A stretch of 64,000 bases of DNA, taken from an uncultured Acidobacteriota bacterium (GTDB lineage Bacteria > Acidobacteriota > Terriglobia > Acidiferrales > UBA7541). The notes below the pieces were generated by a model. It had not been told where the DNA came from. It saw nothing but the letters and a program-made list of their open reading frames with translations, and made no database searches. Positions 829 to 35,282 of the stretch are shown in pieces; positions within the stretch are counted from its first letter, which is position 1; each line of letters begins with the position of its first letter. A program made the translations under genes and the position numbers. The stretch spans positions 39,766 to 103,765 of the forward strand of contig CAVZTQ010000002.1 in NCBI GenBank assembly GCA_963778235.1. The letters run 5' to 3'.

Positions 829-1200
829 ATGACCACACAACAAACCGAACTCCTCCAAGGCACACTCGACATGCTAATCCTGAAATCTCTTGCCCTCGAG
901 CCATTGCACGGACTGGGCGTAGCTCGCCGCATCGAGCAAGTAACCCGCGGCACATTTCAGGTCAAGCCCGGCTCGCTTTTTCCCGCGCTGCATCGCATGG
1001 AAGAAGAAGGCTGGGTGAAATCCTATTGGGGCGAATCCGCAAATAATCGCAAAGCAAAATATTACGAACTGACGCGCACCGGGCCGCCGCCATCTCGAAT
1101 CCGAAACGGAAAAATGGGGACGCATCTCCGTAGCAATCGCCCGCGCACTACAGGCCGAAGGATAATCGCATGGCTCTTTTTCAAAAAATCCGCCGCCTAG
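829..1200 (+). CDS. PadR-family transcriptional regulator (acidobacterial type), C-terminal helix out of frame (1-nt frameshift near 1081-1083)
   Basis: The wHTH core [56 protein letters not shown]...[11 protein letters not shown] parallels the intact paralog at 56758-57120. After the GGG run at 1081-1083, the expected tail [26 protein letters not shown] is encoded in the +1 frame. That frame stops at 1163-1165, 4 nt before the permease ATG. Confidence 0.75.
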
Positions 1201-3824: not shown

Positions 3825-3837
3825 AGTTTTCGATTTC

Positions 3838-3870
3838 GTAGGGGCCACCTTCAGGTGGGCCGCTGTTTTT
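3838..3870 (+). terminator. REP-like element, class II (GTAG + GGCCACC-TTCA-GGTGGGCC hairpin + TGTTTTT); terminator-like
   Basis: GTAGGGGCCACCTTCAGGTGGGCCGCTGTTTTT lies 14 nt after the ADOP1 stop. The SD AGGAGGG and the ADOP2 ATG follow directly. It is part of a 59-nt block identical to 6615-6673. Confidence 0.65.
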
Positions 3871-3884
3871 AGGAGGGAACAGCA

Positions 3885-6566: not shown

Positions 6567-6573
6567 TTGGTTG

Positions 6574-6600
6574 GTAGGGTGGGTCTGCGACCCGCCCGCT
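6574..6600 (+). repeat. REP-like element, class I variant
   Basis: GTAGGGTGGGTCTGCGACCCGCCCGCT lies 8 nt after the ADOP2 stop. Same hairpin architecture as 670-700 with substitutions. Confidence 0.65.
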
Positions 6601-6619
6601 GTTCGATTCGCCGAATTTC

Positions 6620-6652
6620 GTAGGGGCCACCTTCAGGTGGGCCGCTGTTTTT
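6620..6652 (+). terminator. REP-like element, class II; terminator-like
   Basis: Sequence is identical to 3838-3870. It is the second of two tandem REP-like elements in the ADOP2-ADOP3 spacer. Confidence 0.65.
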
Positions 6653-6666
6653 AGGAGGGAACAGCA

Positions 6667-9300: not shown

Positions 9301-9423
9301 CGATGCGTAGACATGGTCGATGAACCGGCCGCTGTACGATTGGCGAGAATGTTGTAGGGGCAATCTTTTTAGCAGGAAGACGCTCGAAGGTCAGGTCGCT
9401 CAAGATTTTTGCGAGGAATAAAA

Positions 9424-17158: not shown

Positions 17159-18391
17159 ATGTGCTCTCTTAGGTTTACGCAGCGAATTAGTTTCCGGCAA
17201 GTGACTTCTTTGATTCTGCTATGCGCGCTACTTAGCGGATGCGGTTCCGGTTTGAAGTTAGTGGGCGGCAATCCTGTTGTGCCTCCTTCGACGATGCTGA
17301 CGTTCGCACTGCCGGTTCTGCTCGGCACGAACGGATCGAATCCGGCGTCCATCGCGATTGCTGATTTTAATGGCGACGGAAAACTGGATATCGCTGTCTC
17401 AAACTTTTTTTCAAACACCATCTCGATTTTCATCAACAGGGGTACCGGAATATTTAATAGTCCAATTTTGGTGCCCGTGACTATTACGGACAGCATTGGC
17501 GCGATTGCCGTCGGCGATTTTAATGAAGACGGGAAACCTGATCTCGTGGTGGGAACAATTTCTGGGCCGCAAGCGGATATCGTGCTGCTGAACACGGGCA
17601 ACGGGACGTTTGCCCAGCAGGCGCCAATTCCAAACTCGTTCGGCTTTTTTCAAGCGGTTGCCGTGGATTTGAATGGCGATGGACATTTGGATTTGGTCCG
17701 CTGCGGCAACGCGTTCGTGTCCGTTTCATTGGGGAAGGGCGATGGCACGTTCAGCGCCAGTGTGGATTTGACGCTCAGTCCCAACACCGCCGGCCCGGTG
17801 CAGGGGCTGGTCGTGAAGGATTTCAACGGAGACGGAAAACTGGATGTTGTGGCCGTGCAACCTACGACAGTGGTTGGCAACAACTTTACTCAGGGAAATC
17901 TGTTATTTTTCGCCGGCAATGGTGACGGGACTTTCAAGATCGGCACGTCAACGCCCTTAGGACTCGGTGAGTTAGTTTCGATCGTCGCCGGAGATTTTAG
18001 TGGCGATGGAAAACAAGACGTGGTGGTCGGAACGGCAGTCTCAGCGTTGCTTCTGCCCGGAAATGGCGATGGGACATTCGGCAAATCAGTGCTGGTGGTG
18101 AATCCTTCGGGAAGCACCGCGACAAATTTCGTGGAACTTGCAACCGCCGACTTCGATGTGGACGGCAAACCAGACGTTATTGCGACCAACTCTGGAAGCG
18201 GAACAGAAACGTTAGTTCTGAATAACGCGCTGGGAGTTTTTCCGCCGCCTGCAAATACATCGTACACATTCAATCTGATCGCCGGAGTTGCCGCAATTGC
18301 AGTGGGAGATTTTAGCGGAGATGGGCTGCCGGATTTCGTCACCGTCAATAACGTGACGAATCAAATCTCGATAATTCTTTCGCAGAAATAG
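17159..18391 (+). CDS. FG-GAP/VCBS-repeat lipoprotein (7 repeats, probable beta-propeller)
   Basis: Lipobox LLSGC. Seven DFNGDGKLD-type repeats: DFNGDGKLDIAV, GDFNEDGKPDLVV, VDLNGDGHLDLV, KDFNGDGKLDVV, GDFSGDGKQDVVV, ADFDVDGKPDVI, GDFSGDGLPDFV. Confidence 0.85.
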   Translation: MCSLRFTQRISFRQVTSLILLCALLSGCGSGLKLVGGNPVVPPSTMLTFALPVLLGTNGSNPASIAIADFNGDGKLDIAVSNFFSNTISIFINRGTGIFNSPILVPVTITDSIGAIAVGDFNEDGKPDLVVGTISGPQADIVLLNTGNGTFAQQAPIPNSFGFFQAVAVDLNGDGHLDLVRCGNAFVSVSLGKGDGTFSASVDLTLSPNTAGPVQGLVVKDFNGDGKLDVVAVQPTTVVGNNFTQGNLLFFAGNGDGTFKIGTSTPLGLGELVSIVAGDFSGDGKQDVVVGTAVSALLLPGNGDGTFGKSVLVVNPSGSTATNFVELATADFDVDGKPDVIATNSGSGTETLVLNNALGVFPPPANTSYTFNLIAGVAAIAVGDFSGDGLPDFVTVNNVTNQISIILSQK

Positions 18392-18471: not shown

Positions 18472-19452
18472 TCATTTTCCAGATTTTTTCGCGTAATAGC
18501 CTTTGCGCGCGAAGATTTTGTATTTCTTGCCGGTTAGTTCCAGCTTCAATTGTCTGTATTTTCCGTCGGGGTCGCTGTTCGTAGGGTAATAGCCGATGGA
18601 ATATTCGGTGCGAAGCTCGTCAGAAATTTGATCGAAAGCTTTCTGAAGGCGCGACTGGTTCGCGACGTCAATCGCGCGGCCTCCGGTATCTTCGGTAAGG
18701 TGTTTTGCTGCGTCGAAATCCGCGTAATCCTTCTTGCCATAGACGACCAGCAACTGGACGAGGGTGTCGGCGCGTTGCGCGGCCTCAACTGCCTGCTTGA
18801 TGGTGATGTAACTGCCCTGATCGCTTGCGTCGGTGAGGATGATGAGCGCTTTGCGTCCTGCTTCGCCCGCCATTTTCTTCAAGCATGCGGTATAGATCGT
18901 GTCGTACAAACGCGTGCCGCCTTGATACGGAGAATACTGGCCGGGCCTGAGATGATTGGCGCCGCCCATCCCGATATCGGCTCGCCGAACGCTGCGATCG
19001 AGAGCCGCAAAGTCGCTCGTCCAATTGGAAAGCATCACGGCATCAGCATCGAATGCAACCACGAACGCTTTATCGCCTTCCTGAAGCACCCGGTGAAGGA
19101 ATTGAGTGGCGGCCATCTGTTCAGCGCCAATCATGTCTTGTTCACTGCCGCTGGTGTCAATCAATAGTCCAAGGGAAAGCGGCATAGTTTTTTCGTGCGA
19201 GAAGAACGCAATTTTTTGTTCGATTTTATCTTCAAAAATTCTGAAATCCGATTGATCGAGATTCGGCACGTTGACGTTATGTTTGTCGACGACCGTGGCG
19301 TAAATATTTACCAGCGGCACTCCGATGCGAATGGCGTCATCTTGCGGGGCCGCGGGAATGGCGGAAGCCGTGGCGCGACGGGCGGGGGTGCCAAGCAAAG
19401 TGGCGGATACGATAGCTAAGACAATCAACGCCGGCGTAGAACGGATTTGCAT
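18472..19452 (-). CDS. VWFA-related acidobacterial-domain protein (secreted VWA protein)
   Basis: Start moved to ATG 19452 (MQIRSTPALIVLAIVSATLLG signal peptide). N-terminal module IRIGVPLVNIYATVVDKHNVNVPNLDQSDFRIFEDKIEQKIAFFSHE is followed by a VWA fold with MIDAS-like LLIDTSGS. Confidence 0.8.
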   Translation of the reverse strand: MQIRSTPALIVLAIVSATLLGTPARRATASAIPAAPQDDAIRIGVPLVNIYATVVDKHNVNVPNLDQSDFRIFEDKIEQKIAFFSHEKTMPLSLGLLIDTSGSEQDMIGAEQMAATQFLHRVLQEGDKAFVVAFDADAVMLSNWTSDFAALDRSVRRADIGMGGANHLRPGQYSPYQGGTRLYDTIYTACLKKMAGEAGRKALIILTDASDQGSYITIKQAVEAAQRADTLVQLLVVYGKKDYADFDAAKHLTEDTGGRAIDVANQSRLQKAFDQISDELRTEYSIGYYPTNSDPDGKYRQLKLELTGKKYKIFARKGYYAKKSGK

Positions 19453-19616
19453 GGTTTTGGTTAGATGAAACTCCGTCGCTATTGGGGGCGGCCGAGTGAA
19501 AAATACGATCTGTGTTCGAGGGTACATTATTTTTGAGAAAGAAAACAATACGGAATAATGACAGGAAGGTGAAAGTTGCCGAGGGCGGAGAGTGAAGGCC
19601 GCCGCTCGAATGATCG

Positions 19617-19682
19617 ACAGGAATAAAAACAACAAGGCGAGCCTTGCACGAGAGTGGAGGCTCGTGCCGGCTCGCCTTGTTG
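19617..19682 (-). terminator. Rho-independent terminator of the TPR gene
   Basis: A perfect 14-bp outer stem (CAACAAGGCGAGCC 19630-19643 / GGCTCGCCTTGTTG 19669-19682) encloses a 7-bp inner stem (GCACGAG/CTCGTGC). On the minus strand TTTTTATT follows. It lies about 40 nt after the TPR stop. Confidence 0.75.
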
Positions 19683-20585: not shown

Positions 20586-23500
20586 ATGAGTTTTGTGGCT
20601 GAGAAAATTACGCGGGGATTTTGGCGTATTTGCGCGTGCGCAATGATATTCGCGGTGGTGGCTGGGGCGGCGATGGCGCAGCAGACGAACTCACTCGAAA
20701 CGCGAATTGCGGCGATCATGGAGCGGCCGGAATTTAAATATACAAGTTTCGGGATTGAGTTTTATTCGCTGGATAAGGGCAAGGCGATTTACAAGCTGGA
20801 TGCTGGGAAGCTTTTCACGCCGGGTTCCACTACGAAATTGCTGACGGAAGGTACTGCGCTGGCTTTGTTGGGCGCGGATTATCGATTTCACACGAAGGTG
20901 TATCGGACGGGACTGATTGATGCGGATGGCACGTTGAAGGGCGATTTGATTTTGGTGGCCAGCGGCGACCCGAATTTGAGTGGGCGGATTCAGTCTGACG
21001 GCACGATGGGATATACCAACGAGGACCACTCGTATGCAGGGAGTCCCGACACGAAGGCGGTGCCGGGCGATCCGCTGATGGTGATTCGCGAACTGGCGGC
21101 GCAGGTGGCGGCGCGCGGAGTGAAGCGCGTTGAAGGACATGTGATTGTGGACGCGTCATTATTCCGCGAAGGCGCGCGCGAGCTGGGAACCGGCGCGGTG
21201 ATTTCGCCGATCTCGGTGAATGACAATTGTGTGGACATCACCGTGGCGCCGGGCGAGAAGGTCGGCGATGCGGTTGCCGTGACAGTTTCTCCGCAGACGA
21301 GCTATGTGCGATTTCTGGTGCGCATGAATACCGGTGACAAAGATACGCAGCCGATGATGCGTTACAACTCGGACGATACGGACGCCGAAGGGAAGCACAC
21401 CGTAATTCTGGCCGGCAGTGTGCCGCTGGGCGGGCCGCCAATTTTGTGGACGTACAAAGTGCCGGAGCCCAGCCGGTTTGCGGAAATTGCTTTTGTGGAG
21501 GCGTTGAAGGAAAAGGGAGTTGCGGCGGAGCTTCGTTCAGCGACGACGAAGCCGGATTTCGCGGCGGTTGCTCCTCAATATAAGGATGATGCCATTGTGG
21601 CGGAGCACGTGTCGCCACCGCTTTCTGAAGAAATAAAAGTTACGTTGAAAGTGAGCCAGAATTTGCATGCCAGCATGACACCTTCGATTGTTGGTGCGCT
21701 GGTCGTGCCGTCGCTGACGGGGAACGCATCCGAACAGGCTGGTTTCGACAAGGAAAACAAATTCTTAACGAAGGCGGGACTGGATTTAGGCGGCGCTTCG
21801 CAGGGCGACGGAGCTGGCGGCGCGCAGTCGGCATATTTCACGCCGGAATTTATGGTGTCGTATCTCACGTACTGGTCGAAGCGTCCGGACTTCAAGATTT
21901 TTTACGACGCACTGCCGATTCTGGGGCGCGACGGAACGCTGTGGAATATCCAGCCGGATTCGCCGGCGGCTGGGAGCGTTCACGCGAAGACGGGAACGTT
22001 CAGCGCCGGTAATGCGCTTACAAAAACTTTGATGGTCACGGGCAAGGGTCTTGCAGGATATATGACGACCGCCAGCGGTGAGCATTTGGCGTTCGCGATT
22101 TATGCGAATCATGTGACGGTGCCGAGAGATTTGCCGGATGCTGCGTCGAAAATTGTTGGTCAGGCGCTGGGTGAAATTGCCGCGGCGGCATATGACGGGC
22201 GTTCAACCGCCCCGACCAAAGAAGTAGCTTCACCGCAGGCACCATCCGCCGAATACGATATTTTGATTCGCAACGGGCACATCGTGGATGGCAGCGGAAA
22301 TCCGTGGTACGCGGGGGATGTTGCGATAAGCGGAAATCGTATTGTGAAGATTGGGAATCTGAAGGATGCACACGCGAAGCGGGTGATTGACGCGAAGGGA
22401 ATGGCCGTCGCGCCGGGATTTATCGACATGCTCGGCCAATCGGAAACCTCTTTGCTGATTGACAGCCGCTCTCTGAGCAAGCTTTCGCAGGGAATTACTT
22501 CCGAAATTACAGGCGAGGGTGGAAGCATCGCGCCACAGGACGCATTAACGCTCGAGCCGCTGAAGCCCTTCCTGGATCACTACAAGCTGATGGTCGATTG
22601 GACGGATTTGGACGGATATTTCCGCCGATTGGAAAAATCGGGCACGCCGATTAATTTCGGAACATATGTCGGCGCGGCGCAAGTCCGCGAAGCTGTGCTG
22701 GGCGACGCTGACCGTGCGCCGACGGCGGATGAACTCGCGAAAATGAAAGCGCTTGTCGCGACGGCGATGCAACAAGGCGCGATGGGAGTTTCTACCGCGC
22801 TGATTTATCCTCCGGGACATTTTGCAAAAACGGACGAGCTGATCGCACTCGCGAGCGTGGCGGGAACTTACGGCGGAATCTACGCGTCGCATATGCGCAG
22901 CGAGGGCCGCGCGCAAATGGCGGCGCTCGACGAAGCAATTCGCATCGGCCGTGAAGCGAGACTTCCCGTCGAGATATTTCATCTGAAAGTTGCGGGCAAG
23001 GATCGCTGGGGACAAATGCCGCTGGTCGTGAAGAAAATTGAAGCCGCGCGGCAGTCCGGCATCGATATCGCGGCGGACATGTATCCCTATTTGGCCGGTG
23101 CGACGGCACTCTCTTCGGCACTGCCTCCGTGGGTTGCAGCGGGCGGGCCGGCGAAGGAAATCGAGCGACTGCACGATCCGAAAATGCGCGCTCGAATTAA
23201 ATTGGAAATGGCGGTAAGTCACGCGGACTGGGAAAATTTATATTTGGCGTCAGGCGGCGCGGGAGGAGTGATGATCGCGTCGGTTTTCAGTCCGGAGCTG
23301 AAGAAATACGAAGGCAAAACGGTTGCGGAAATGGCGGCATCCGAACACAAGACACCGATTGACGCGCTGATGGATTTTGTAATTGAGGATAATTTACAGA
23401 CCGGCGCACTTTATTTTATTGCCAGCGAACCGGACCTTCGTACCGGCCTTTCGCAATCGTGGACGAGCATCGGTCTGGACGCGAATGAGGAGTCGCTCGA

Positions 23501-23873
23501 CGGACCACTATTCAATCCGCACGACCATCCGCGAACGTGGGGCGCGATGCCGCGATTTCTGGGCCACTATTCGCGTGATTTGAAAATGATGCCGATGGAG
23601 CAGGCGGTACGGAAAATTACTACGCTGCCTGCTGAGCGCGAGCATCTAACCGAGCGCGGAATGTTGAGGGCGGGATATTTTGCGGACATCACAATTTTCG
23701 ATCCGGAGAAAATTATCGATCACGCGACGTACACGAAACCCGGCCAGCTTTCCGATGGCGTGGCTTTCGTGCTGGTGAATGGGCAGGTTGCGTTTGAGGC
23801 GGGGAAAATTACCGGCGTGACAGCGGGCGTTCCGTTGCGCGGGCCGGGATGGAAGGCTGGATCGTCGAATTAG
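20586..23873 (+). CDS. Fusion protein: N-terminal PBP4-type D-Ala-D-Ala carboxypeptidase/endopeptidase (peptidase S13), C-terminal N-acyl-D-amino-acid deacylase (D-aminoacylase, amidohydrolase fold)
   Basis: Signal peptide. S13 motifs: STTK (20826-20837), GDLILVASGDPNLSG, HAKTGT (KTG at 21987-21995). Linker STAPTKEVASPQAPSAE. From about 22251: YDILIRNGHIVDGSGNPWYAGDVAISGNRIVKIGNL...VAPGFIDMLGQSE...YASHMRSEG...EIFHLKVAG...ADMYPY, typical of the D-aminoacylase family. Confidence 0.85.
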   Translation: MSFVAEKITRGFWRICACAMIFAVVAGAAMAQQTNSLETRIAAIMERPEFKYTSFGIEFYSLDKGKAIYKLDAGKLFTPGSTTKLLTEGTALALLGADYRFHTKVYRTGLIDADGTLKGDLILVASGDPNLSGRIQSDGTMGYTNEDHSYAGSPDTKAVPGDPLMVIRELAAQVAARGVKRVEGHVIVDASLFREGARELGTGAVISPISVNDNCVDITVAPGEKVGDAVAVTVSPQTSYVRFLVRMNTGDKDTQPMMRYNSDDTDAEGKHTVILAGSVPLGGPPILWTYKVPEPSRFAEIAFVEALKEKGVAAELRSATTKPDFAAVAPQYKDDAIVAEHVSPPLSEEIKVTLKVSQNLHASMTPSIVGALVVPSLTGNASEQAGFDKENKFLTKAGLDLGGASQGDGAGGAQSAYFTPEFMVSYLTYWSKRPDFKIFYDALPILGRDGTLWNIQPDSPAAGSVHAKTGTFSAGNALTKTLMVTGKGLAGYMTTASGEHLAFAIYANHVTVPRDLPDAASKIVGQALGEIAAAAYDGRSTAPTKEVASPQAPSAEYDILIRNGHIVDGSGNPWYAGDVAISGNRIVKIGNLKDAHAKRVIDAKGMAVAPGFIDMLGQSETSLLIDSRSLSKLSQGITSEITGEGGSIAPQDALTLEPLKPFLDHYKLMVDWTDLDGYFRRLEKSGTPINFGTYVGAAQVREAVLGDADRAPTADELAKMKALVATAMQQGAMGVSTALIYPPGHFAKTDELIALASVAGTYGGIYASHMRSEGRAQMAALDEAIRIGREARLPVEIFHLKVAGKDRWGQMPLVVKKIEAARQSGIDIAADMYPYLAGATALSSALPPWVAAGGPAKEIERLHDPKMRARIKLEMAVSHADWENLYLASGGAGGVMIASVFSPELKKYEGKTVAEMAASEHKTPIDALMDFVIEDNLQTGALYFIASEPDLRTGLSQSWTSIGLDANEESLDGPLFNPHDHPRTWGAMPRFLGHYSRDLKMMPMEQAVRKITTLPAEREHLTERGMLRAGYFADITIFDPEKIIDHATYTKPGQLSDGVAFVLVNGQVAFEAGKITGVTAGVPLRGPGWKAGSSN

Positions 23874-23919: not shown

Positions 23920-23957
23920 GAAACTTGGCGCGCTAAGAGGAATTGGAGATCGCTGAA

Positions 23958-24767
23958 ATGAATTTCGCGAAGGAATTGAAAGTCCGGCCGGGAAAGCGCG
24001 TGAAGCTTTCGCATTACGATGCCGCCGAAACATTTGGATACGAGAAGGACGCTGATTGTAAAAGGCTGACGGAAAAATCGCTGGCCCATATGGATGCGGC
24101 GCAGGACTTGCTGTATGCCGAAAACAAGCGCGCGGTATTAATCGTTTTGCAGGGGATGGACGCGGCGGGTAAGGACGGCACAATCCGTCACGTGATGTCC
24201 GGCGTGAATCCGCAAGGATGTTCCGTCACAGCGTTCAAGGTTCCATCGCATGTTGAAGCGCAGCACGATTTTCTGTGGCGCGCGCACGTGGCCGTGCCGG
24301 GTCGCGGTCAAATTGGAATCTTCAATCGCTCCTACTATGAAGATGTGCTGGTCGTGCGCGTTCACAAGCTCGTTCCGGAAGAGGTGTGGAAGAAGCGGTA
24401 CGAGCAAATCAACAATTTTGAAGCGATGCTCGCCGAAAATAATGTCACGCTGCTGAAATTTTTTCTGCACATCAGCAAAGACGAGCAGAAGCGGCGCTTC
24501 GAGGAACGGCTCAAGGACCCCAGTCACCAATGGAAGTTATCTCCGGCGGATTTGGCGGAGCGGAAATATTGGGATGATTATGTTGAAGCGTACGAAGCGG
24601 CGTTGACGAAGTGCAATACTGGGGACGCGCCGTGGCACATCATTCCCGCGAATCATAAATGGTTCCGGAATCTGGCGGTTTCAAGAATAATTGCGCGCAC
24701 GCTGGAAGGCTTCCACATGAAATATCCGAAGCCGTCGTTTGATTTTTCCCACTACAAGCTGAAGTAG
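23958..24767 (+). CDS. ppk2: Polyphosphate kinase 2 family (polyphosphate:nucleotide phosphotransferase)
   Basis: LIVLQGMDAAGKDGTIRHVMSGVNPQGCSVTAFKVPS...FNRSYYEDVLVVRVH...LKFFLHISKDEQKRRFEERL...WKLSPADL. ATG 23958 with GGAG 9 nt upstream is preferred over TTG 23943. Confidence 0.88.
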   Translation: MNFAKELKVRPGKRVKLSHYDAAETFGYEKDADCKRLTEKSLAHMDAAQDLLYAENKRAVLIVLQGMDAAGKDGTIRHVMSGVNPQGCSVTAFKVPSHVEAQHDFLWRAHVAVPGRGQIGIFNRSYYEDVLVVRVHKLVPEEVWKKRYEQINNFEAMLAENNVTLLKFFLHISKDEQKRRFEERLKDPSHQWKLSPADLAERKYWDDYVEAYEAALTKCNTGDAPWHIIPANHKWFRNLAVSRIIARTLEGFHMKYPKPSFDFSHYKLK

Positions 24768-24784: not shown

Positions 24785-24813
24785 TTGACTGTTATTTTCC
24801 GAGAGAGTATTTT
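24785..24813 (+). promoter_or_regulatory. Candidate sigma70-type promoter for the four-paralog array
   Basis: TTGACT (24785-24790), a 17-nt spacer, then TATTTT (24808-24813). It lies about 35 nt upstream of ATG 24847. Confidence 0.3.
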
Positions 24814-24846: not shown

Positions 24847-25752
24847 ATGTTTCGTCGATTCGTGGCAGGTGCGCTAATGACGCTCGGTCTTGCTGTGCTC
24901 GTGACAATGGCAGATGAAGCGTGGGCGGATAAGGATTGGCATCAATGGTCGAAGGACGAAGTAAACGTCGTGCTGCACGATTCACCGTGGAGCAAGCGTT
25001 GGGCGAAAGGCCAAGTGAATACCAGCGCGGCATTGCCTGGTATCTCCGGAGCCGGTCAGGAAGGCGCGGCTGGCGAAGGCGCGCCGCGGATTGACTACTA
25101 CTTCCAGATTCGATCGGCGGAGCCGGTGCGCGATGCAATTGTTCGCCAGTTCCAGTTCGACCAGTCATACGACACGAGTATGTCGGCCAGCGAAAAAAAA
25201 TCCTTCGACGAAAAAGCCGCGCAGATCATAAATCGCCGGTATGACGATTCAATCGTCGTGCACGTCCTCTACAGCTCAAATATTCAGGCATTCGAGAGAG
25301 ATTTGGCGACGTACTGGCAGAGCCTGACGCAGGATTCAATTAAAGATAGGGTTTATCTGATCACTGAGCGCGGCGACCGCATCGCGCCAAACCGGTTTGT
25401 GTCGTCACGCACAGGCTCATATGAATTTGAATTGAATTTCCCGCGCACAGTAAATGGCGAGCCTTTGATTCATCCAGACGATAAAGAGTTCAGCATACAA
25501 TTCACCAATCCTCCTGTGGGTGACACACAATCTACCGGAAGTCGTGCGCCGAACAGCGCTGGACTCGCGCAATCGGGCGCGGCGCGGGAAGCCAGTCGGG
25601 GTACTACCGCAGCGAACAGGAATCCCTTGCCTCCGACGGGCGCAAATTCAACAAATCCTACCAGTCACACCGTCGCGAGTTTTAAGGCGGAGCGAGTACT
25701 GGTTCAATTCAATGTAGCTAGCATGATGTGGAAAGGGAAACCGGCATTTTGA
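24847..25752 (+). CDS. Secreted protein of unknown function, paralog 1 of 4 (Trp-rich N-terminal motif family)
   Basis: SD GGGAGG plus ATG 24847, with a signal peptide. Motif KDWHQWSKDEVNVVLHDSPWSKRW, then YDDSIVVHVLYSSNIQAFERDLATYW, RFVSS..GSYEFELNFPR, ERVLVQF. It is the most diverged member and has the longest low-complexity insert before ERVL. Confidence 0.8.
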   Translation: MFRRFVAGALMTLGLAVLVTMADEAWADKDWHQWSKDEVNVVLHDSPWSKRWAKGQVNTSAALPGISGAGQEGAAGEGAPRIDYYFQIRSAEPVRDAIVRQFQFDQSYDTSMSASEKKSFDEKAAQIINRRYDDSIVVHVLYSSNIQAFERDLATYWQSLTQDSIKDRVYLITERGDRIAPNRFVSSRTGSYEFELNFPRTVNGEPLIHPDDKEFSIQFTNPPVGDTQSTGSRAPNSAGLAQSGAAREASRGTTAANRNPLPPTGANSTNPTSHTVASFKAERVLVQFNVASMMWKGKPAF

Positions 25753-25814
25753 GATTTGAATGTGGGAATCGAGTTTCGTGAAGATGGTGATTGGAACGAA
25801 AAGGGGGAAATTTT

Positions 25815-26717
25815 ATGAATCGTCGCCGATATGCAATCGCGGTAATGGGAGTTCTTGCACTGGCGGTTCTAACCGTGCAAGCCGAGGATTTTTGGGTCAA
25901 GAAGGACTGGACGAAGTGGTCGAAAGACGAATGCAATAAAATTTTGACTGATTCGCCGTGGAGCAAGAAGTGGGGCAAGGGCGAAGTAGCGCTCAGCGCG
26001 GCACTGCCTTCACAACAGCAGGTCAATCCAGCGAATGACAAATCGATGGGCGGGGGCGGCACGCTGGGCTCGTCCGCCACAGGAACGACCGGCGCCGGGC
26101 AGGAAGGCGCGGGCGGGGACAACAATATCGAGATTCATTACTACATCGAGTTGCAATCGGCGCTACCGGTGCGTCAGGCGCTGATTCGCCGAGCGCAATT
26201 CAACAACAACTACGACAAGCTGGACGCGGAGCACAAGAAGGCGTTTGATGCGCAGGTAAAAGGCCTTCTGGACGCGACCTATGATGACGCGATTGATGTC
26301 CGCGTTTCGTACGGGTCAGCACAGCAATATTTGGAACGCCAACTTGCGACGTACTGGAAGTCAATTCCAGAGAACTCACTTCCAGTTGACGTTTATCTAA
26401 TCAATGAGAAGGGCGACCACATCCCGCCGGCGAAATTCCTTTCTCCCAAGGGCGCGGATTATTCATTTGATTTGATTTTTCCGCGCATGCAAAACAATGA
26501 GCCGGTGATTCGCACGACGGACAAATCGTTCAGCGTACAGTTTCCGCATCCGGCGATTGGCTCGCAGAAAAAAGGGCAGAATATTCCAACGGACCCAAGT
26601 AATCCGAATGCCGAAGGTACAGGAAGCACTCCGGCCACAACCAGCCTCGGCAGGGAACGCGTGCTGGTGACCTATCAGTTGAACAAGATGGTGGTGGGCG
26701 GGAAACCGCTCTACTGA
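25815..26717 (+). CDS. Secreted protein of unknown function, paralog 2 of 4
   Basis: Signal peptide ...LTVQA/EDFWVKKDWTKWSKDECNKILTDSPWSKKW, then LQSALPVRQALIR, YDDAIDVRVSYGS, LATYWKSIP, YSFDLIFPRMQNNEPV, ERVLVTY. Confidence 0.82.
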   Translation: MNRRRYAIAVMGVLALAVLTVQAEDFWVKKDWTKWSKDECNKILTDSPWSKKWGKGEVALSAALPSQQQVNPANDKSMGGGGTLGSSATGTTGAGQEGAGGDNNIEIHYYIELQSALPVRQALIRRAQFNNNYDKLDAEHKKAFDAQVKGLLDATYDDAIDVRVSYGSAQQYLERQLATYWKSIPENSLPVDVYLINEKGDHIPPAKFLSPKGADYSFDLIFPRMQNNEPVIRTTDKSFSVQFPHPAIGSQKKGQNIPTDPSNPNAEGTGSTPATTSLGRERVLVTYQLNKMVVGGKPLY

Positions 26718-26849
26718 TTATTTACAGACAAGCTAGGCCACGACCAGTAGCAAGGCTATATTATATCGTCGTTACGTGAGCGCAGTGGCCTGAAGTCACA
26801 ATTTTGTGGCGTCAGGCCATTTGCGTGTATCCAACTTCCGGAGGGAAGA

Positions 26850-27656
26850 ATGAACTTGAAACGCCGCTATTTTGCAGGTGTGCTCGCAGTGCTGGCGGTT
26901 GCCGTGTTGACTGCACGCGCTGAAGACTTCTGGGTCAAGAAAACGTGGAATCAGTGGTCGAAAGATGAATGCAACAAAATTTTGACGGATTCGCCGTGGT
27001 CCAAGAGGTGGTCGAAAGGATCAGTGACGGTGAGCGCCGCGCTCCCCGGAAATTCCGGCCAGTCTTCGGAAGGCGCGGGCGGTGAAAAATCTCCTGAAGT
27101 TTTCTACGTGGTCCAGCTCAGGTCGTCTCTTCCCGTTCGAGAGGCGGTCGTGCGGCAGCAGCAAATTCAGGGATACAGCAAGCTTAGCGATGCGGAGAAG
27201 AAAGCGTTTGACGCCAAAGCCGAGGCGTTCTTCAACACGTCATACGAGGACGTAATTCTAGTCCACGTGGACTATGGTTCAAACGTTCAAACATTCGAGC
27301 GCGAGATGGCCGTCTATTGGAAGAACATTCGCGAGGACTCAGTGCCGGTGGATTTCTATCTGATTAACGAACGCGGCGATCGCATCACACCAGCAAGGTT
27401 CGTTTCTCCCAAGAACGGCACCTACGCATTTGATCTGATATTTCCGCGCTTGAAGAACAATGAGCCAGTCGTCCGCGAAGGCGATAAGACCTTGCAGATT
27501 CAATTCGTAAATCCTGCGGTGGGGAATCAGAGCCAATCGACCGGTGGCGCTTCCGCTGGGTCGCTTGATCCTTCCATTGGCGTGTTCGGCCGGGAGCGCG
27601 TCTTGATCCAATTTAAGCCGGACAAAATGATGGTGAACGGCAAACTGTCATTTTGA
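26850..27656 (+). CDS. Secreted protein of unknown function, paralog 3 of 4
   Basis: SD GGAGGGA. Signal peptide ...ARA/EDFWVKKTWNQWSKDECNKILTDSPWSKRW, then LRSSLPVREAVVR, YEDVILVHVDYGSNVQTFEREMAVYW, YAFDLIFPRLKNNEPV, ERVLIQF. Confidence 0.85.
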   Translation: MNLKRRYFAGVLAVLAVAVLTARAEDFWVKKTWNQWSKDECNKILTDSPWSKRWSKGSVTVSAALPGNSGQSSEGAGGEKSPEVFYVVQLRSSLPVREAVVRQQQIQGYSKLSDAEKKAFDAKAEAFFNTSYEDVILVHVDYGSNVQTFEREMAVYWKNIREDSVPVDFYLINERGDRITPARFVSPKNGTYAFDLIFPRLKNNEPVVREGDKTLQIQFVNPAVGNQSQSTGGASAGSLDPSIGVFGRERVLIQFKPDKMMVNGKLSF

Positions 27657-27791
27657 GGGATTGGTCAGCCCGAAATTGAGGCACGTGCGCGCATGAAGTT
27701 ACCAACGCGCGACCAAAAATAAGAATCAGGCAAACTAACGGAAGTCTCCGGCGTCTAAGCAGTAATAGAACACGTCGGAGGCTTCTGGATA

Positions 27792-28589
27792 ATGTCGATT
27801 TCACGAGGGAAGTTTGCAGGAATTCTAGCGGTATTGCTTTTGGCGGCGTTCACGGCGCAAGCCGAGGACTTCTGGGTTAAGAAAGACTGGAAGCAGTGGT
27901 CGAAAGAGGAGTGTACGAAGATTTTGCAGGACTCGCCGTGGTCCCGTAAGTGGGCCAAGAGCCAAATGGGCAGTCCTCAAATGCCGGGCGTTTCCGGTGC
28001 CAATGCAGAAGGCGCTTCTGGAGAGAAAACTCCGGAGATGCACTACGACATTGAACTGCAATCCGCCCTGCCGATTCGCGAAGCGGTAATTCGCAAAGCC
28101 CAAATCGATCAAAAATACGACAAGATGACCGAAGCGCAGAAGAAGGAGTTCGACTCGAAAGCGGGCGCCTTTCTGAATCGCAGCTACGACGACGTGATTT
28201 TGGTTCACATTACTTTTGGCTCGAATCTGCAAGCTTTTGAACGGGAGATGGCCACGTATTGGAAAACGATTCCACCCGAAGCGCCTCCCGTCGACATGTA
28301 CCTGATTACCGAAAACGGCGATCGCGTGCCGCCTATCAGATTCAATACATCGCAGAGTGGCGCTTACTCATTTGATTTGATTTTTCCGCGTATGAAAAAT
28401 CGCGAGCCAATTGTGCATGACGGCGATAAGGTTCTGAGCCTGCAGTTCACGCATCCGGCGATTGGGAATCAAACGCAAATCAATACGACCAATCCAACGA
28501 ATCCTTCGATCGATGTTTTCGGGGAAGAACGAGTCCTGATTCAATTCAAGCTGGATAAGATGGTAGTTAACGGTAAAGCAAATTATTGA
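27792..28589 (+). CDS. Secreted protein of unknown function, paralog 4 of 4
   Basis: Signal peptide ...AQA/EDFWVKKDWKQWSKEECTKILQDSPWSRKW, then LQSALPIREAVIR, YDDVILVHITFGSNLQAFEREMATYW, YSFDLIFPRMKNREPI, ERVLIQF. Confidence 0.85.
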   Translation: MSISRGKFAGILAVLLLAAFTAQAEDFWVKKDWKQWSKEECTKILQDSPWSRKWAKSQMGSPQMPGVSGANAEGASGEKTPEMHYDIELQSALPIREAVIRKAQIDQKYDKMTEAQKKEFDSKAGAFLNRSYDDVILVHITFGSNLQAFEREMATYWKTIPPEAPPVDMYLITENGDRVPPIRFNTSQSGAYSFDLIFPRMKNREPIVHDGDKVLSLQFTHPAIGNQTQINTTNPTNPSIDVFGEERVLIQFKLDKMVVNGKANY

Positions 28590-28755
28590 TTTTCTAAAAG
28601 ATTGAGCCGCTGGGCTGGGATTCGGGTAGAATGGCCTGATAGTCGAGCTTTGAATTGGCGGGCGCATGCAGAGCCAGTTCGGGCTTGGCGAAACTAGATT
28701 GCCGTCCTTGGATTAGCACACTACATCGGCAGCAATTTGAAGAGGTAGGTGGCCA

Positions 28756-30645
28756 ATGCCTTCCCAACCGTCCATAACGAACGGACTTGTTTCCGGAAAA
28801 TTTCCGAAGGTGCTGAAGCGTCCGCTGGCGATTCTCGCCACCTTGGGCGCGCTTGTACTAATTTCTTTGGCGCCTATGCTTCGCGCCGCTCCGCAATCGC
28901 AGACTCCGCCCCCGCCTCCTCCGGCGCAGAAGACTCAAGCACCCACAGATAGTTCGGCGACCGAAGCTGCTCGGCCCGCGCTGCGCGTGGTCCAGCAAAT
29001 GGTGCAAGTGGACATTATCGCGAAAGACCGCGACGGCAAGCCTGTCCAAAATTTGAGACAGAGCGATTTCACCGTGTACGACAACGGCCGGAAGCAGGAC
29101 ATTTCGTTCTTTTCGTTGGAGACGGATAAGACGCGAAATCTGCCGCGGCCTCAGTTGGCGCCGGGAACTTATTCCAATTTGATTGAACAGAAGCAAGGCG
29201 TGCCGGGGAATCTGACGATTCTGTTGCTGGATTTTCTGAACACGAAGCATTCAGATATTGCATTCGCGAAAGACAAAGTAATCAAACTACTTCGCGACAT
29301 GAAACCGGACGATCGCGTTGCGGTTTACGTGTTGAGCGGACGGCTTTATGTGCTGCACGATTTCACGAGCGACATGACCGCGCTGACGCAGTCCGTGAAG
29401 AAGTACGACACGGTTGACTCTGCGGATGTTGCGAACTCATCCTCGTACACTCCGGACTTCGGACCGGTGATCGCGGACAGTCAGTTCTTGAACCAAGCGT
29501 CTCAAGATATGTCGGATTACGCAAATATTGATCGCGTGTTCACGACGACAAATGTTTTTGAAATCATCGCGCAACATATGATCAGATTGCCGGGGCGCAA
29601 GAATCTCATTTGGGTATCGGGGTCATTTCCGATAAGCATGAATTTGGACAAGATCGAAAATTCTACGAACGATGCTTATGAGACTCCCTCAACGCCGATG
29701 CTCAGTCCTGCCACATATGGAGTGAAGCCCGGCCCGAGTAACCACTCGGAAGGGTTGTACATGTCCGATCGCAGGACTTTCGACGATCAGGTGGCGCGAG
29801 CCGTCCGCTCGCTTGCGAGCGCAAACATCGCGATTTATCCCGTGGACCCGCGCGGTCTGATTGGCAATTCCGGAACACTGGCACCGGCGCCTGCTATGAC
29901 AGGATCCATGCCGATCTCTTCTCCGCTAATGTATGAGCAGCCCGGTGCGCTTTACGATATTGCGCCTAATTTTGACACGATGAATATGCTCGCGAGTCAA
30001 ACCGGCGGACTCGCGTTCTATAACAACAATGACATCGGATCAGAAGTGCGGAAAGCGATCGAAGATTCGCGTGTAAGTTATATGCTCGCGTTCTATCCGT
30101 CGGTGGATGACGGTAAAGGAAGATTTCACAACCTTAAGGTGCGGGTAGACCGGCCCGGCATTGAACTTCGTTACCGCAACGGATATACGCCGAAGCCGCT
30201 GAACTTTACGGGCATCATTGATAACAGCGCCATTCTGCGCGAAGCAGTTGCAAGTCCGCTGGACGCTACGGGCCTGGGGATGACCGTGCACGCTTCGTCC
30301 GTACACGGCGCCACGACTCCGACGGTCGCGCTGCGAATTAATCTCGAGGAAAACGATGTCAGCTTCAAGTTTGACGACGAGCGCAACACCGGACTAATTG
30401 AAGTGATGCTGGTGCAGTACGACGCCGAAGGAAATCAGATTTGGGGCGAAACCAGCAAAGTGAAAATGCGTCTGGTGAAAGATACCTACGCGAAAGTTCG
30501 GAAAGAAGGCCTTCAGTTCGGACGGAATTTGCCGCTGAAACCCGGCGCCGTTGAATTGAAGGTGATTGCGTGCGACGACAAGAGCAGCGCGATCGGATCG
30601 GTGTCAATTCCGTTGGCGTCGTATCAGCCGCCGTCAGGAAAGTAA
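28756..30645 (+). CDS. VWFA-related acidobacterial-domain protein (large, secreted or membrane-anchored)
   Basis: 629 aa with an N-terminal TM/signal segment and a Pro-rich linker. Family module LRVVQQMVQVDIIAKDRDGKPVQNLRQSDFTVYDNGRKQDISFFSLE. VWA-like core (LTILLLDFLNT..., NLIWVSGSFP, IAIYPVDPRGL, TGGLAFYNNND). Confidence 0.82.
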   Translation: MPSQPSITNGLVSGKFPKVLKRPLAILATLGALVLISLAPMLRAAPQSQTPPPPPPAQKTQAPTDSSATEAARPALRVVQQMVQVDIIAKDRDGKPVQNLRQSDFTVYDNGRKQDISFFSLETDKTRNLPRPQLAPGTYSNLIEQKQGVPGNLTILLLDFLNTKHSDIAFAKDKVIKLLRDMKPDDRVAVYVLSGRLYVLHDFTSDMTALTQSVKKYDTVDSADVANSSSYTPDFGPVIADSQFLNQASQDMSDYANIDRVFTTTNVFEIIAQHMIRLPGRKNLIWVSGSFPISMNLDKIENSTNDAYETPSTPMLSPATYGVKPGPSNHSEGLYMSDRRTFDDQVARAVRSLASANIAIYPVDPRGLIGNSGTLAPAPAMTGSMPISSPLMYEQPGALYDIAPNFDTMNMLASQTGGLAFYNNNDIGSEVRKAIEDSRVSYMLAFYPSVDDGKGRFHNLKVRVDRPGIELRYRNGYTPKPLNFTGIIDNSAILREAVASPLDATGLGMTVHASSVHGATTPTVALRINLEENDVSFKFDDERNTGLIEVMLVQYDAEGNQIWGETSKVKMRLVKDTYAKVRKEGLQFGRNLPLKPGAVELKVIACDDKSSAIGSVSIPLASYQPPSGK

Positions 30646-31316: not shown

Positions 31317-31685
31317 TTAGTTATGCGCTTGCGTTGTCGGCGTCGCCGGCGCATCGCTCGCGTTCATAATATTTTTCGTGTGGCGTCCGGAAGGTTGTGC
31401 GGCCGGTTCTTTCGATACTGACGGCATCGCGGCGCGCTTATGGCAGGACGTTGCCCACCAACGCGTTTCGTACTTCGGGATCTCGCACATTTTTTTCGGA
31501 CATGACGCCATGCCGTCATGACCTTCGCACTGGCAATAGCATTTGAATTGTTTCGCGGCGGCCGGTTGCGGCGTGCGTCCGTCAGCAAACATCGGAACTG
31601 CAGCGCAGGTGATCAGCGCAATCAGTGCTGCGGTTTGCCATATCGCTCGCCGGGTGGTTGTCGTGATGTGTGCTCTCATTGACAT
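31317..31685 (-). CDS. Small Cys-rich secreted protein, unknown function
   Basis: Start moved to ATG 31685 (MSMRAHITTTTRRAIWQTAALIALITCAAVPMFA). The mature part has 7 Cys (FKCYCQCEGHDGMASCPKKMCEIPKYETRWWATSCHK). Confidence 0.5.
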   Translation of the reverse strand: MSMRAHITTTTRRAIWQTAALIALITCAAVPMFADGRTPQPAAAKQFKCYCQCEGHDGMASCPKKMCEIPKYETRWWATSCHKRAAMPSVSKEPAAQPSGRHTKNIMNASDAPATPTTQAHN

Positions 31686-32243
31686 GACGCAATATTGCGC
31701 TGCGGAAGTGCACAGCCTGTATGGCGCTGTAGGATAGTTCGCCGCGTACCGGGGTTCTATAACCACAATTTTCAAGTGATTGAAAATAGGGGACTTAAAG
31801 ACACAGTACCGCGATGGTACTGCCTTATTTCGGGGCATTTTTGGCTTGAGAGAGCAGCAAGGAAAACTTGAACGCTTTAGCGAACACTTTTTTAGAAAGG
31901 GACCTATCTGAGATGAATCTCAGCGAATCAGTTCCTTAATAGGAACGTCCGCCCGAAATGGAACTGCGCGCGTGGGAATTATTCCGCGAAAACCGAATCG
32001 CAAACTCGCAAGTGATAGGAAAGATTGAAAAGTTTTCGCGCGTGCTTGCTCCAAAAAATTGGCCCACTTATTGCTATGACAGAGACGGGTGCATTTCGAA
32101 AGCGATCCAAAGCCCGACGACGAGTGAGGGGGAAGGGGCTTGCTCGTTGAAAGGAATGGATCGTTCCTACCTGCCTCTGAGAGGGAAGCATGTTGGATGA
32201 CCCCACGCCCCGGTCTCTGTGCCGGGAAACGAAATGCACTTTT

Positions 32244-32744: not shown

Positions 32745-35282
32745 ATGACAGACAGAGTGAATTCCGAGCGAGATCCCGTTTGCGGTATGCAGGTCGACCC
32801 TGCGCGCGCCGCCGCGAAAGTGGAACACGGCGGAAAAATATTTTATTTTTGTTCGGCGGGATGCGGAAAGAAATTTACGGAGACGCCAGAGAAATACTTG
32901 TCGGCGAAGACGATTGATCCACGTGAAATGATGCCTGCGTCCGGCGGCTTTGTGACCATCGGCGGTGCGAAGCCAGTGCATGCGCCGCACGAAGTAAGAG
33001 CTCCGCAAAGGGGTTCTGTCGAGTACACCTGTCCGATGCATCCGGAAATCCGCGAAATCGTTCGCGCCGGTGCGAATCCGCCACCCTGTCCAGATTGTGG
33101 GATGGCACTGGATCCAGTTAATGTCGAAGCAAACCAATCCTCGGCGAAAACCGAATACGTTTGCCCGATGCACCCCGAAATTGTTCGTGACGCACCGGGG
33201 ACTTGCCCCATCTGCGGAATGGCGCTCGAACCGCGCACTGTAACTCTCGCGGAGCCGCCGAACGCTGAACTTATTTCAATGACGCGCCGACTCTGGATAT
33301 GCGCCGTGCTTACCGCGCCAGTTTTTCTGCTGTCCATGTCGGATTTAATTCCGGGTATGCCGATGCAGAATTTGCTCGGCATGCGCGCAATCACCTGGAT
33401 TGAATTTCTGCTCGCCACTCCGGTGGTGCTTTGGGGCGGATGGCCGTTTTTTGAGCGCGGCGTCGCTTCGATCGTTCGGCTCAAACTAAATATGTTCACG
33501 CTGATTGCGATTGGCACAAGCGCCGCCTACGGATTCAGCGTGGTTGCGGCGATTGCTCCCGGAATATTTCCGGCGTCATTTCGGGAGATGGACGGGAGTG
33601 TGGCCACATATTTCGAGGCAGCCGCGGTAATCACAACTCTCGTGCTTCTCGGACAAGTGCTGGAACTTCGCGCGCGAAGTCAGACGAGTGGAGCGATTCG
33701 CGCGCTGCTCGGCCTGCAACCTTCCACAGCTCTGCGTGTATCCGCGGACGGACGCGATGAGGAAGTCCCGATGGACGCGGTGCATCCGGGAGACAAACTT
33801 CGCGTACGTCCCGGAGAAAAAATTCCAGTCGACGGAATTGTGCTCGAAGGGCGCAGCACCGTGGACGAGTCCATGATTACCGGCGAAGCGATTCCCGTGG
33901 AAAAGATGGAGGGCGTGCGAGTAACCGGAGGCACCATAAATTCGACGGGAAGTTTTGTGATGCGCGCGGAAAAAGTTGGACGCGATATGTTGCTGGCGCA
34001 AATCGTGAAAATGGTCAGCGATGCCCAACGAAGCCGCGCGCCAATTCAGCGGTTGGCTGACGTGGTTGCGTCATATTTTGTTCCGGCGGTATTAGTTTGC
34101 GCGGCTATTACGTTTGTAGTCTGGACGTTTGCAGGCCCGCAACCGCGATTGGCGCATGCGATCGTGAATTCCGTCGCGGTTCTGATTATCGCCTGTCCTT
34201 GCGCGCTGGGATTGGCTACGCCGATGTCGATTATGGTCGGCACCGGACGAGGCACGCGCGCCGGCGTCCTGATTAAAAACGCGGAGGCTCTCGAAATTCT
34301 GGAAAAGGTTGACACGCTGGTGGTGGACAAAACGGGCACGCTGACCGAAGGAAATCCGCGCGTGACCGCGATTGTTCCGGCGGCCGCGCACGCTGAAAAA
34401 GAGCTATTAGGTTTTGCTGCGAGTGTCGAGCGCGCCAGCGAACATCCATTGGCCGCGGCAATTTTAGCCGCGGCGAGAGAAAAATCTGTAGAAGCTTCCG
34501 CGGTTTCCAATTTCAACGCTATCGCTGGCGGCGGAGTTACCGCCGAAATTGCACGAGATGGAAATTTTCCGGTACAGCGCATCAGCCTAGGAAGCTCAGC
34601 GTTTCTGATTGAGCAGGGAATTCCGACGGATTCACTTTCAGCGCAAGCGGAAAAGCTCCGGCAGAACGGTGACACCGTTGTGTTCGTGGCGGCCGGCAGC
34701 GAATTAATCGGAATGATCGGCGTGGCAGATCCAATCAAAAAAACGACCATCGAAGCATTGCGAGATTTGCGTGCCGAAGGGCTGAAGATCGTGATGCTGA
34801 CCGGCGACAACAAGACCACCGCCGAAGCCGTCGCACGAAGTCTAGGCATTGACGAAGTGCACGCCGAAGTTCGACCCGAAAGAAAAGGCGAAATTATTCG
34901 CGAGCTGATCGCGCAGGGTCGCAAAGTCGCCATGGCAGGAGACGGAATTAATGACGCGCCGGCGCTCGCGGCTGCGGACGTCGGAATCGCGATGGGTTGC
35001 GGCACGGACGTGGCCATGGAAAGCGCCAGTATCACGCTTGTCGGAGGAGACTTGCGCGCCATCGTTCGCGCCAGCCGGTTGAGCCGTGCAACAATGCGGA
35101 ATATTCGCCAGAATTTGTTTTTCGCGTTCGTTTATAACGTGTTGGGCATTCCACTGGCCGCAGGCGTACTGTATCCATTTTTCGGATGGCTGCTTAGCCC
35201 GATGATTGCCAGCGCCGCGATGAGTTTTAGTTCTGTCTCGATAATTTCCAACGCTCTTCGCCTGCGAAAAGTTCAGCTTTAA
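32745..35282 (+). CDS. copA: Copper/silver-translocating P1B-type ATPase with a YHS/TRASH domain and two CPMHPE-type metal-binding modules at the N-terminus
   Basis: DPVCGMQVD...[11 protein letters not shown]. Two copies of Y(T/V)CPMHPEI...CP.CGMALEP. CPC in [35 protein letters not shown]. Confidence 0.92.

Follow-up and report, generated by a model that had tools for sequence, protein, structure and literature searches.

Four exported paralogs beside a VWFA-related gene in an uncultured acidobacterium: a possible partner family for a TIGR03436 protein

Members of the Acidobacteriota rank among the most abundant bacteria in soil, and a large part of their envelope proteome lacks annotation. 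Here we analyse a stretch of 64,000 nucleotides (nt) from an uncultured member of this phylum (assembly GCA_963778235.1, contig CAVZTQ010000002.1, positions 39,766 to 103,765 of the forward strand; hereafter the window), in which four paralogous genes, P1 to P4, stand in one orientation upstream of a gene for a protein with a von Willebrand factor type A (VWA) domain, VWA629. The VWA gene belongs to a family that is known but uncharacterised, and the family formed by the small proteins is represented neither in curated databases nor in the PDB. The five genes are listed below together with their orthologs in L013, a related locus, for which sequence identity and the ratio of non-synonymous to synonymous substitution rates (dN/dS) are given.

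24847–25752, + strand: P1, 301 amino acids (aa); L013 ortholog 84% identical, dN/dS 0.11
25815–26717, + strand: P2, 300 aa; L013 ortholog 76% identical, dN/dS 0.07
26850–27656, + strand: P3, 268 aa, the best-conserved copy, used for modelling; L013 ortholog 96% identical, dN/dS 0.02
27792–28589, + strand: P4, 265 aa, the copy adjoining the VWA gene; L013 ortholog 88% identical, dN/dS 0.06
28756–30645, + strand: VWA629, VWFA-related protein, 629 aa; L013 ortholog 84% identical, dN/dS 0.11

The four paralogs, 265–301 aa in length, are collinear and share 46–59% pairwise identity. A first-pass annotation, made from the sequence letters, had reported four co-oriented paralog genes with a set of collinear motifs; their coordinates match ours, and all of the motifs are visible in the four-paralog alignment, where W..WSK.E...L.DSPW, RSALPVR.A..R, KK.FD, YDD.I.VHV, FER..A.YW, YLI.E.GD, F.L.FPR..N.EP, ERVL and GK..[FY] are shared. 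P1, which has a GGAGG Shine-Dalgarno sequence 5 nt ahead of its ATG, contains a long Gly/Ser/Thr/Asn/Pro-rich loop before ERVL and lacks Cys in its mature form. A hidden Markov model (HMM) of the family finds no fifth copy elsewhere in the window.

The L013 contig carries the same genes in the same order, namely a PBP4-amidohydrolase fusion, a PPK2 gene, the four paralogs, the VWA gene, a 214-aa membrane protein (mem214), a 173-aa protein (p173) and a P-type ATPase. In a neighbour-joining tree, P1, P2, P3 and P4 each form an orthologous group common to the window, L013 and two further loci, L014 and L017; P3 and P4 split latest, and in L015 and L016 the only family gene, which adjoins the VWA gene, falls with them. 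The genes are real: they have orthologs in related Terriglobia (Acidoferrales-like) assemblies, and purifying selection maintains every copy. The shared orthologous groups and the low dN/dS indicate that the array is an old, stably inherited expansion and neither a recent nor a decaying duplication. In the long-read metagenome contigs of L013 (3809–7089) and L014 (7058–9004 and 11903–13793), two family copies, a VWA gene and the PBP4 fusion are split by frameshifts, for which assembly errors are a more likely explanation than pseudogenes.

We used family and VWA629 HMMs to score 101 related loci, 93 of them non-redundant, drawn from species-representative genomes, from metagenomes and by exact look-ups. 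Banded by family HMM score, the assessable loci have a VWA629-type gene directly downstream in the following numbers.

Close band (score ≥ 300): 17 of 17 loci
Middle band (score 200–299): 1 of 24 loci (L022)
Distant band (score < 200): 0 of 21 loci

The linkage that the first-pass annotation had singled out for checking is therefore recurrent in the close loci, but it is found in just 1 of the 45 more distant ones; the family is strictly paired with a single orthologous group within the TIGR03436 VWA proteins, but in one clade only. The VWA629 orthologs (46–87% identity) follow one family gene in nine loci, two in two loci and four in the window, L013 and L024, with three copies in three loci by a count that scored L014 as three (this locus has five copies, but two carry frameshifts and were not scored as full). 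The pair is kept in three upstream contexts: PPK2 in most loci; VWA_2 genes, three of which lie upstream in L015, L032 and L043, with a gap between family and VWA gene of 24 nt in L015 and L032; and an M61 peptidase with MsrPQ in L022 and L051, where the gap is 36 nt and the VWA protein is 46% identical. Because the L022 family member is a deep branch of the tree and its VWA protein is only 46% identical, the pairing is older than the P1–P4 expansion.

Our preferred reading, put forward tentatively, is that P1–P4 have no enzymatic activity and serve in the envelope as alternative partners of the membrane-anchored VWA protein, present as sub-functionalised isoforms. We infer the partnership from gene linkage, and the non-enzymatic role and periplasmic location of the small proteins are likewise inferred. 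In its favour, the pair is found with one, two, three, four or five family copies at a fixed chromosomal slot, and the residues that are invariant across 55 diverse family members are limited to the types W, R and A.

Several observations weigh against a partnership. The wider family, at least 1,638 clusters in size, almost never lies beside a VWA629-type gene (1/24 and 0/21 loci in the two lower bands). Loci L004, L005 and L007 retain the order PPK2, family gene, p173 without a VWA gene, and in the metagenome-assembled genome that holds L002 and L007 the VWA ortholog (L019) lies ~1.4 Mb from the family genes. In L001, a locus of the close band, and in L033, the C-terminal ~150 aa of a VWA629-type protein is all that is left downstream of the family gene. 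The spacer between P4 and the VWA gene in the window is 166 nt long and 49% conserved relative to L013, so that co-transcription of the two genes is not assured. The 17 linked loci all come from a single clade, across which synteny extends over the entire neighbourhood, and inheritance alone therefore explains part of the linkage signal.

The fragment in L001 (10776–11474; likewise in L033) is a 232-aa open reading frame (ORF), 53% identical, that overlaps the end of the family gene, and represents what a deletion left behind or else a C-terminal domain that stands alone. Homology of the paralogs to any part of VWA629, considered as an explanation for this fragment, was rejected at an hhalign probability of 1%.

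The main rival, which we regard as a real possibility though we do not favour it, is that the paralogs are stand-alone envelope proteins, with a periplasmic binding, chaperone-like or membrane-peripheral role, and that their adjacency to the VWA gene is inherited synteny in one clade. This is supported by tandem duplication of family genes without a VWA gene in L004, L046, L050, L056, L082, L083 and L092, by the absence of the VWA gene from L004, L005 and L007 and its solitary occurrence in L019, and by the long spacers together with a TAGAAT −10-like element ahead of the VWA gene in the window. It is also supported by the distant family members, which occur in unrelated envelope contexts. Members in L006, L009 and L010 follow CarboxypepD_reg/OMP_b-brl_4 barrels of the TonB type; in L067 (2246–6741) the family gene is the last in a tight MlaE-MlaF-MlaD-ABC_trans_aux operon of the phospholipid-transport type; in L079 (3268–6709; also in L071, L075 and L080) it closes a tight operon of an extracytoplasmic function (ECF) sigma factor gene and two unknown genes; and others adjoin LolA-like, FecR or tetratricopeptide repeat (TPR) genes. 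These contexts are all envelope-related, yet heterogeneous, and the Mla and ECF sigma factor operons hint at an envelope or lipid-related role. Inherited synteny is harder to reconcile with the linkage in 17 of 17 loci of the close subfamily and with a pair that survives three upstream contexts and identities down to 46% (VWA protein) and ~40% (family protein), with gaps of 24–36 nt in L015 and L022. Loci L009 (DATNLZ010000084.1) and L010 (DATMNZ010000148.1) are binned as Dormiibacterota and Saccharimonadales and carry an Acidobacteria-type CarboxypepD_reg outer-membrane barrel followed by the family gene; their taxonomic placement is probably mis-binning.

The first-pass annotation had described two hypervariable segments in the paralogs, one after SAALP and one before ERVL, and had interpreted them as diversified surface loops. 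The paralogs do differ in both places, but length variation in the first segment comes down to a 24-aa insertion in P2, also present in the P2-type orthologs P0011 and P0015; the second segment ranges from ~20 aa (P3 and P4) to ~56 aa (P1). The two segments are the sole low-confidence parts of the mature P3 model (residues 60–79 and 229–238). Within each orthologous group, the length of the inserts and much of their sequence are kept across genomes. Along the segments, dN/dS relative to L013 is 0.19 for P1, 0.03 for P3 and 0.04 for P4, with synonymous sites saturated in P2; this comparison, which the annotation had suggested, reveals no diversifying selection, and values of 0.03–0.19 indicate purifying selection. 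The segments are disordered loops that differ by paralog type and on which selection is purifying or mildly relaxed. A conserved scaffold whose hypervariable surface loops are being diversified for varied ligand recognition, in the manner of an adhesin or antigen, would fit the strong differences between paralogs in segment length and composition, the predicted disorder and exposure of the segments and their ~3.5-fold faster evolution than the core in P1 (dN/dS 0.19 versus 0.06). We consider it very improbable, since dN/dS is never near or above 1, the inserts are conserved among orthologs and no nearby repeats or cassettes point to a diversification mechanism.

That the paralogs are not assignable to a family, as had been stated, is borne out by database searches. 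P1–P4 match no Pfam-A or NCBIfam family at E ≤ 0.1, save for one spurious signal-peptide match, and the PADLOC models of anti-phage defence match none of P1–P4, VWA629, mem214 or p173. Among 55 diverse relatives, searches at E ≤ 0.01 returned no NCBIfam family and three different single-member Pfam matches (TPM_phosphatase, LTXXQ and Chlamy_scaf), which are weak and were taken as chance. GWxTD domain proteins are exported, of uncharacterised function and common in Acidobacteria, and this family (TIGR04514/PF20094) was considered as a lead; the paralogs match neither model, no GWxTD motif occurs in the alignment, and they are not members. Homologs in the source databases are named 'hypothetical protein' or are nameless. 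The family is sizeable: a word-indexed search yielded 203 clusters at 90% identity, and an exhaustive HMMER search of 1.84 billion representatives yielded at least 1,638 clusters (50% identity) at E ≤ 1e-3, with 596 at E ≤ 1e-10 and 217 at E ≤ 1e-30. The 150 best listed family matches are nearly all stand-alone proteins of ~240–300 aa, the few shorter ones being probably partial.

Across the 55 diverse members, W36, W50, R97 and A99 (P3 numbering) are invariant, with no others, and W28, L45, S48, P49, Y86, S92, P95, R102, W157, L171, F198-P199-R200, F255, M260 and G264 are nearly so. There is no conserved set of His, Asp, Glu or Cys in these members. This bears on the possibility that the paralogs are enzymes with a polymer or lipid of the envelope as substrate, such as peptidoglycan, exopolysaccharide or phospholipid. 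Export, the recurrence of envelope-related neighbours (the PBP4-amidohydrolase, and Mla in distant members) and an anion- or ester-binding site that S48, S92, Y86, R97, R102 and R200 could form would all be in keeping with such a role. The restriction of invariance to two Trp, one Arg and one Ala, without the residue types named above, and the lack of a match to any enzyme family or fold make it rather improbable.

The N-termini of P1–P4 show R/K in the n-region, a ~15-residue hydrophobic stretch (Kyte-Doolittle 2.4–2.7) and an A-x-A-type site, with cleavage predicted at VTMA|D (P1), TVQA|E, TARA|E and TAQA|E, where the residue at −1 is small and that at −3 is permissive. The Sec signal peptides had been described as cut before EDFW, and the sites do lie there, P1 reading DEAW instead. 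Each protein has a single hydrophobic maximum at residues 5–22, and P1–P4 contain neither a lipobox nor a second hydrophobic segment; a lipobox-like motif occurs in just 3 of 149 diverse representatives. By these n-, h- and c-region features, P1–P4 are predicted to be exported by Sec and processed by signal peptidase I. Of the 149 representatives, 126 carry the motif WS..E....L..SPW, whose median position is 33.

The opposite end of the protein is also conserved. The chain terminates in Y or F in 134/149 representatives and 119/120 close homologs, as part of a motif G-[KQE]-[LPV]-x-[YF]-COOH. Such a terminal aromatic residue is what would be seen if the paralogs were outer-membrane-targeted proteins recognised through a C-terminal signal like that of outer membrane proteins. 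It is nevertheless extremely unlikely that they are, because the P3 model is mixed α/β with five helices and no barrel, and the alternating hydrophobicity of a β-signal is absent beyond position −3.

The P3 model, obtained with AlphaFold2 (AF2) on a 30-sequence alignment, has a mean predicted local distance difference test score (pLDDT) of 77, a predicted template modelling score of 0.73 and a core at ~90. In this mixed α/β model, short Trp-rich helices (27–46) are followed by a β-hairpin broken by the first loop; helices 94–111, 114–129 and 147–159 pack on strand 135–144, and the C-terminal half is β-rich. A Foldseek search, covering solved structures and BFVD, found nothing below E 1e-3 in either set. 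The best match is PDB entry 3fjv, an uncharacterised protein of Burkholderia pseudomallei (E 0.019, probability 0.99, template modelling (TM) score 0.44 to the target over 141 columns), which no paper that we found mentions. Weak matches (E 0.06–0.18) were also obtained with the periplasmic β-sandwich proteins FtrA/P19 and a CopC-like domain, and for all of these the TM score normalised to the query is at most 0.34. Sequence-profile searches of the PDB with two alignments gave E ≥ 0.12 at best; the matches, a GGDEF fragment that shares 'FPR' and mt-LAF4, which shares 'SALPxRxA', are unusable. A link to copper, hinted at by the P19 and CopC-like matches and by the conserved P-type ATPase and CsoR genes a few kb downstream, was discarded, since conserved His, Met or Cys ligands are lacking in the family.

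VWA629, annotated at first pass as a VWFA-related protein next on the same strand, is indeed one: it matches TIGR03436 (NCBIfam acidobact_VWFA) at E 9e-71 with 239 bits against a cutoff of 81.25, over model positions 2–321 of 324. Its homologs are labelled 'VWFA-related protein' by JGI. No Pfam VWA model reaches E 0.1. The protein consists of an N-terminal hydrophobic anchor or signal (21–42), a Pro-rich linker, a β-sandwich, the VWA domain and C-terminal β-sandwich domains. In the AF2 model (pLDDT 72), the N-terminal helix 21–37 is the sole hydrophobic segment, the linker is disordered, a small β-sandwich spans 83–140, the VWA domain has long disordered insertions, and the C-terminal β-sandwiches lie at ~440–620. 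Foldseek matches this model to the VWA domains of ANTXR2/CMG2, BatB, integrin β, ITIH1 and Mfa5 (E 2e-5 to 1e-3) with probabilities of 0.96–1.00, the value being 1.00 for all except Mfa5. As modelled, VWA629 carries a Rossmann-like VWA fold.

At the position of the metal ion-dependent adhesion site (MIDAS), VWA629 reads LLLD159-F-L-N-T163 in place of DxSxS, with D159 and N162 invariant and T163 nearly so in 42 homologs. Since the first Ser of the motif is Leu, canonical metal-mediated ligand binding at this site is doubtful. The TIGR03436 family is expanded in Acidobacteria. VWA proteins are listed among the paralog families of Solibacter usitatus (PMC3174227). A literature search on TIGR03436 and on VWFA-related proteins of Acidobacteria found nothing relevant. 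A second, shorter VWA protein of the VWA_2 type, weakly similar to VWA629, is encoded in the window at 18472–19635 (− strand), which fits a large paralogous VWA expansion. It adjoins a gene for an FG-GAP repeat (integrin-α-like) protein at 17159–18391 (+ strand). Two or three VWA_2 genes also lie upstream of the family gene in L001, L015, L017 and L032.

The preferred reading, that the small proteins are partners of VWA629, can be cast as a putative mechanism. The locus would be a lineage-specific amplification of gene 1 of a conserved two-gene envelope module of Acidoferrales-like Terriglobia. Gene 1 would encode a Sec-exported, soluble α/β protein of ~240 aa with a Trp-rich helical N-terminal motif, FW.KK.W..WS..E....L.DSPW, no catalytic-looking residues and a terminus that is exactly Tyr or Phe, and gene 2 would encode a membrane-anchored, periplasm-facing TIGR03436 VWA protein in which the MIDAS is replaced by a conserved D-x-L-N-T. 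The small proteins would then act together with the VWA protein, as binding or adaptor subunits of the envelope (a ligand, a cap or a cargo-adaptor), the isoforms P1–P4 having a common core and differing chiefly in the two disordered loops, and they may be expressed from a conserved promoter upstream of P1, with structured leaders before P3 and P4. That P1–P4 are interchangeable soluble subunits or ligands of an as yet unrecognised integrin-like envelope receptor built on the MIDAS-less VWA protein, possibly together with mem214, and that their copy number, from one to five, tunes binding or transport, is unlikely.

Three candidate regulatory elements lie in the spacers of the array.

24785–24813, + strand: sigma-70-like promoter ahead of P1, TTGACT-17-TATTTT, from a pattern scan (9/12 matches)
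26786–26819, + strand: imperfect inverted repeat or RNA hairpin in the P2–P3 spacer, with 16-nt arms of 88% complementarity
27739–27787, + strand: hairpin predicted by folding the P3–P4 spacer, its 3' arm covering the GGAGG (Shine-Dalgarno) of P4

The pattern scan by itself is not above chance, giving 3 sites in the region against 5.7 expected, but TTGAC(T/G)-N17-(G)TATTTT recurs in 9 of 10 related loci even though the rest of the spacer has diverged, which upholds the promoter candidate of the first-pass annotation. The spacer between PPK2 and P1 is 90% identical to that of L013, while the synonymous divergence (dS) of the flanking genes is 0.36 (PPK2) and 0.72 (P1). There is thus good comparative evidence for a putative promoter of the array's own ahead of P1. 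The P2–P3 hairpin, likewise noted at first pass, is found again and is kept in L013 with G.U to G.C changes; its consensus stem has five pairs with double-sided changes across six loci. The P3–P4 spacer is 83% identical to that of L013, and a conserved P4 leader element to which the predicted hairpin belongs, CG-GCGTCTAA ... GTCGGAGGC (27712–27791), is found upstream of P4-type genes in 7 of 8 loci, with equivalents in L013, L014, L023, L027 and L030, for which support from covariation and a consensus fold is weak. As predicted, the 27739–27787 hairpin would occlude the Shine-Dalgarno sequence of P4. The spacers have no Rfam match.

On either side of the array and the VWA gene lie the following two genes.

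23943–24767, + strand: PPK2 polyphosphate kinase (TIGR03709, E 4.5e-118), upstream syntenic neighbour; dN/dS 0.03 against L013
30624–31268, − strand: mem214, multi-pass membrane protein of 214 aa, convergent with the VWA gene and overlapping its 3' end by 22 nt

The PPK2 gene, correctly named at first pass, is upstream of the family in 18 loci by neighbour clustering and is replaced in L015/L032 and in L022. A functional link between PPK2 and the family was considered as the primary link and set aside, PPK2 being cytoplasmic, ending in its own stop ahead of the conserved promoter and being replaced in L015 and L022. Because the family–VWA pair persists in these two loci, PPK2 is not counted in the module. 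Further upstream (20586–23873, + strand) lies a gene for a 1095-aa protein in which a PBP4-type D-Ala-D-Ala carboxypeptidase (Peptidase_S13) is fused to an Amidohydro_3 domain; in synteny with PPK2, it precedes the family in at least 16 related loci. The membrane protein mem214 has no family match in Pfam and NCBIfam scans. It is found beside VWA629-type genes in nine loci by neighbour clustering, or ten with L027, which a phmmer map adds, is absent from loci without a VWA gene and may be a third component of the module. The next gene (31317–31838, − strand) encodes p173, which has a conserved Cys-rich 'FRCYCQCE' motif and no family match and lies syntenically downstream of family or VWA genes in 14 loci. 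It is followed by a copper-type P-type ATPase with YHS/HMBD domains (32745–35282); CsoR-like repressors occur in related loci.

Among known systems, the closest comparison is with the TIGR03436 proteins themselves, of which VWA629 is a member; its subfamily differs by D-F-L-N-T at the MIDAS, and P1–P4 are unrelated to them. BatA and BatB of the Bacteroides aerotolerance (Bat) operon resemble VWA629 in having a membrane-anchored VWA domain that faces the periplasm, and the BatB structures 3ibs and 4jdu are among its best Foldseek matches (E 4e-5 to 9e-5, target-normalised TM ~0.58). VWA629 differs from BatB in its extra N- and C-terminal β-sandwich domains, and Bat operons lack small exported paralogs, whereas the MoxR-type ATPase, DUF58 and TPR (BatC) genes of the Bat operon are not adjacent to VWA629 in the window, where the neighbours of the array and VWA629 are instead the PBP4-amidohydrolase fusion, PPK2, an unassigned membrane protein and an unassigned Cys-rich protein. 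The integrin I-like domains and ANTXR2/CMG2 (with anthrax PA or NetF) resemble VWA629 in their VWA fold, and the proposed logic of a membrane VWA protein with a soluble partner is alike; they differ in that canonical MIDAS binding is unlikely in VWA629 and that the partnership proposed here derives from gene linkage. As an arrangement, the locus is best seen as a variant on envelope modules built around VWA proteins.

Our results define a sizeable exported family (at least 1,638 clusters) that has neither a Pfam or NCBIfam model nor a solved structural relative, and they provide a first testable partner hypothesis for the large TIGR03436 VWA expansion. If the partnership is true, it opens a way into the function of both families, and if VWA629 does act as a receptor for the small proteins, this would be the first function for a new exported fold and for the TIGR03436 expansion. 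If the partnership is false, the family would still merit a structure and a curated model as a domain of unknown function (DUF).

The window holds another paralog array at 1170–12054 (+ strand), with four tandem ORFs of ~880 aa. The two that were scanned (1170–3824 and 3885–6566), together with a fifth copy at 57117–59771 (+ strand), are duplicated MacB_PCD/FtsX permeases of the acidobacterial 'ADOP' type.

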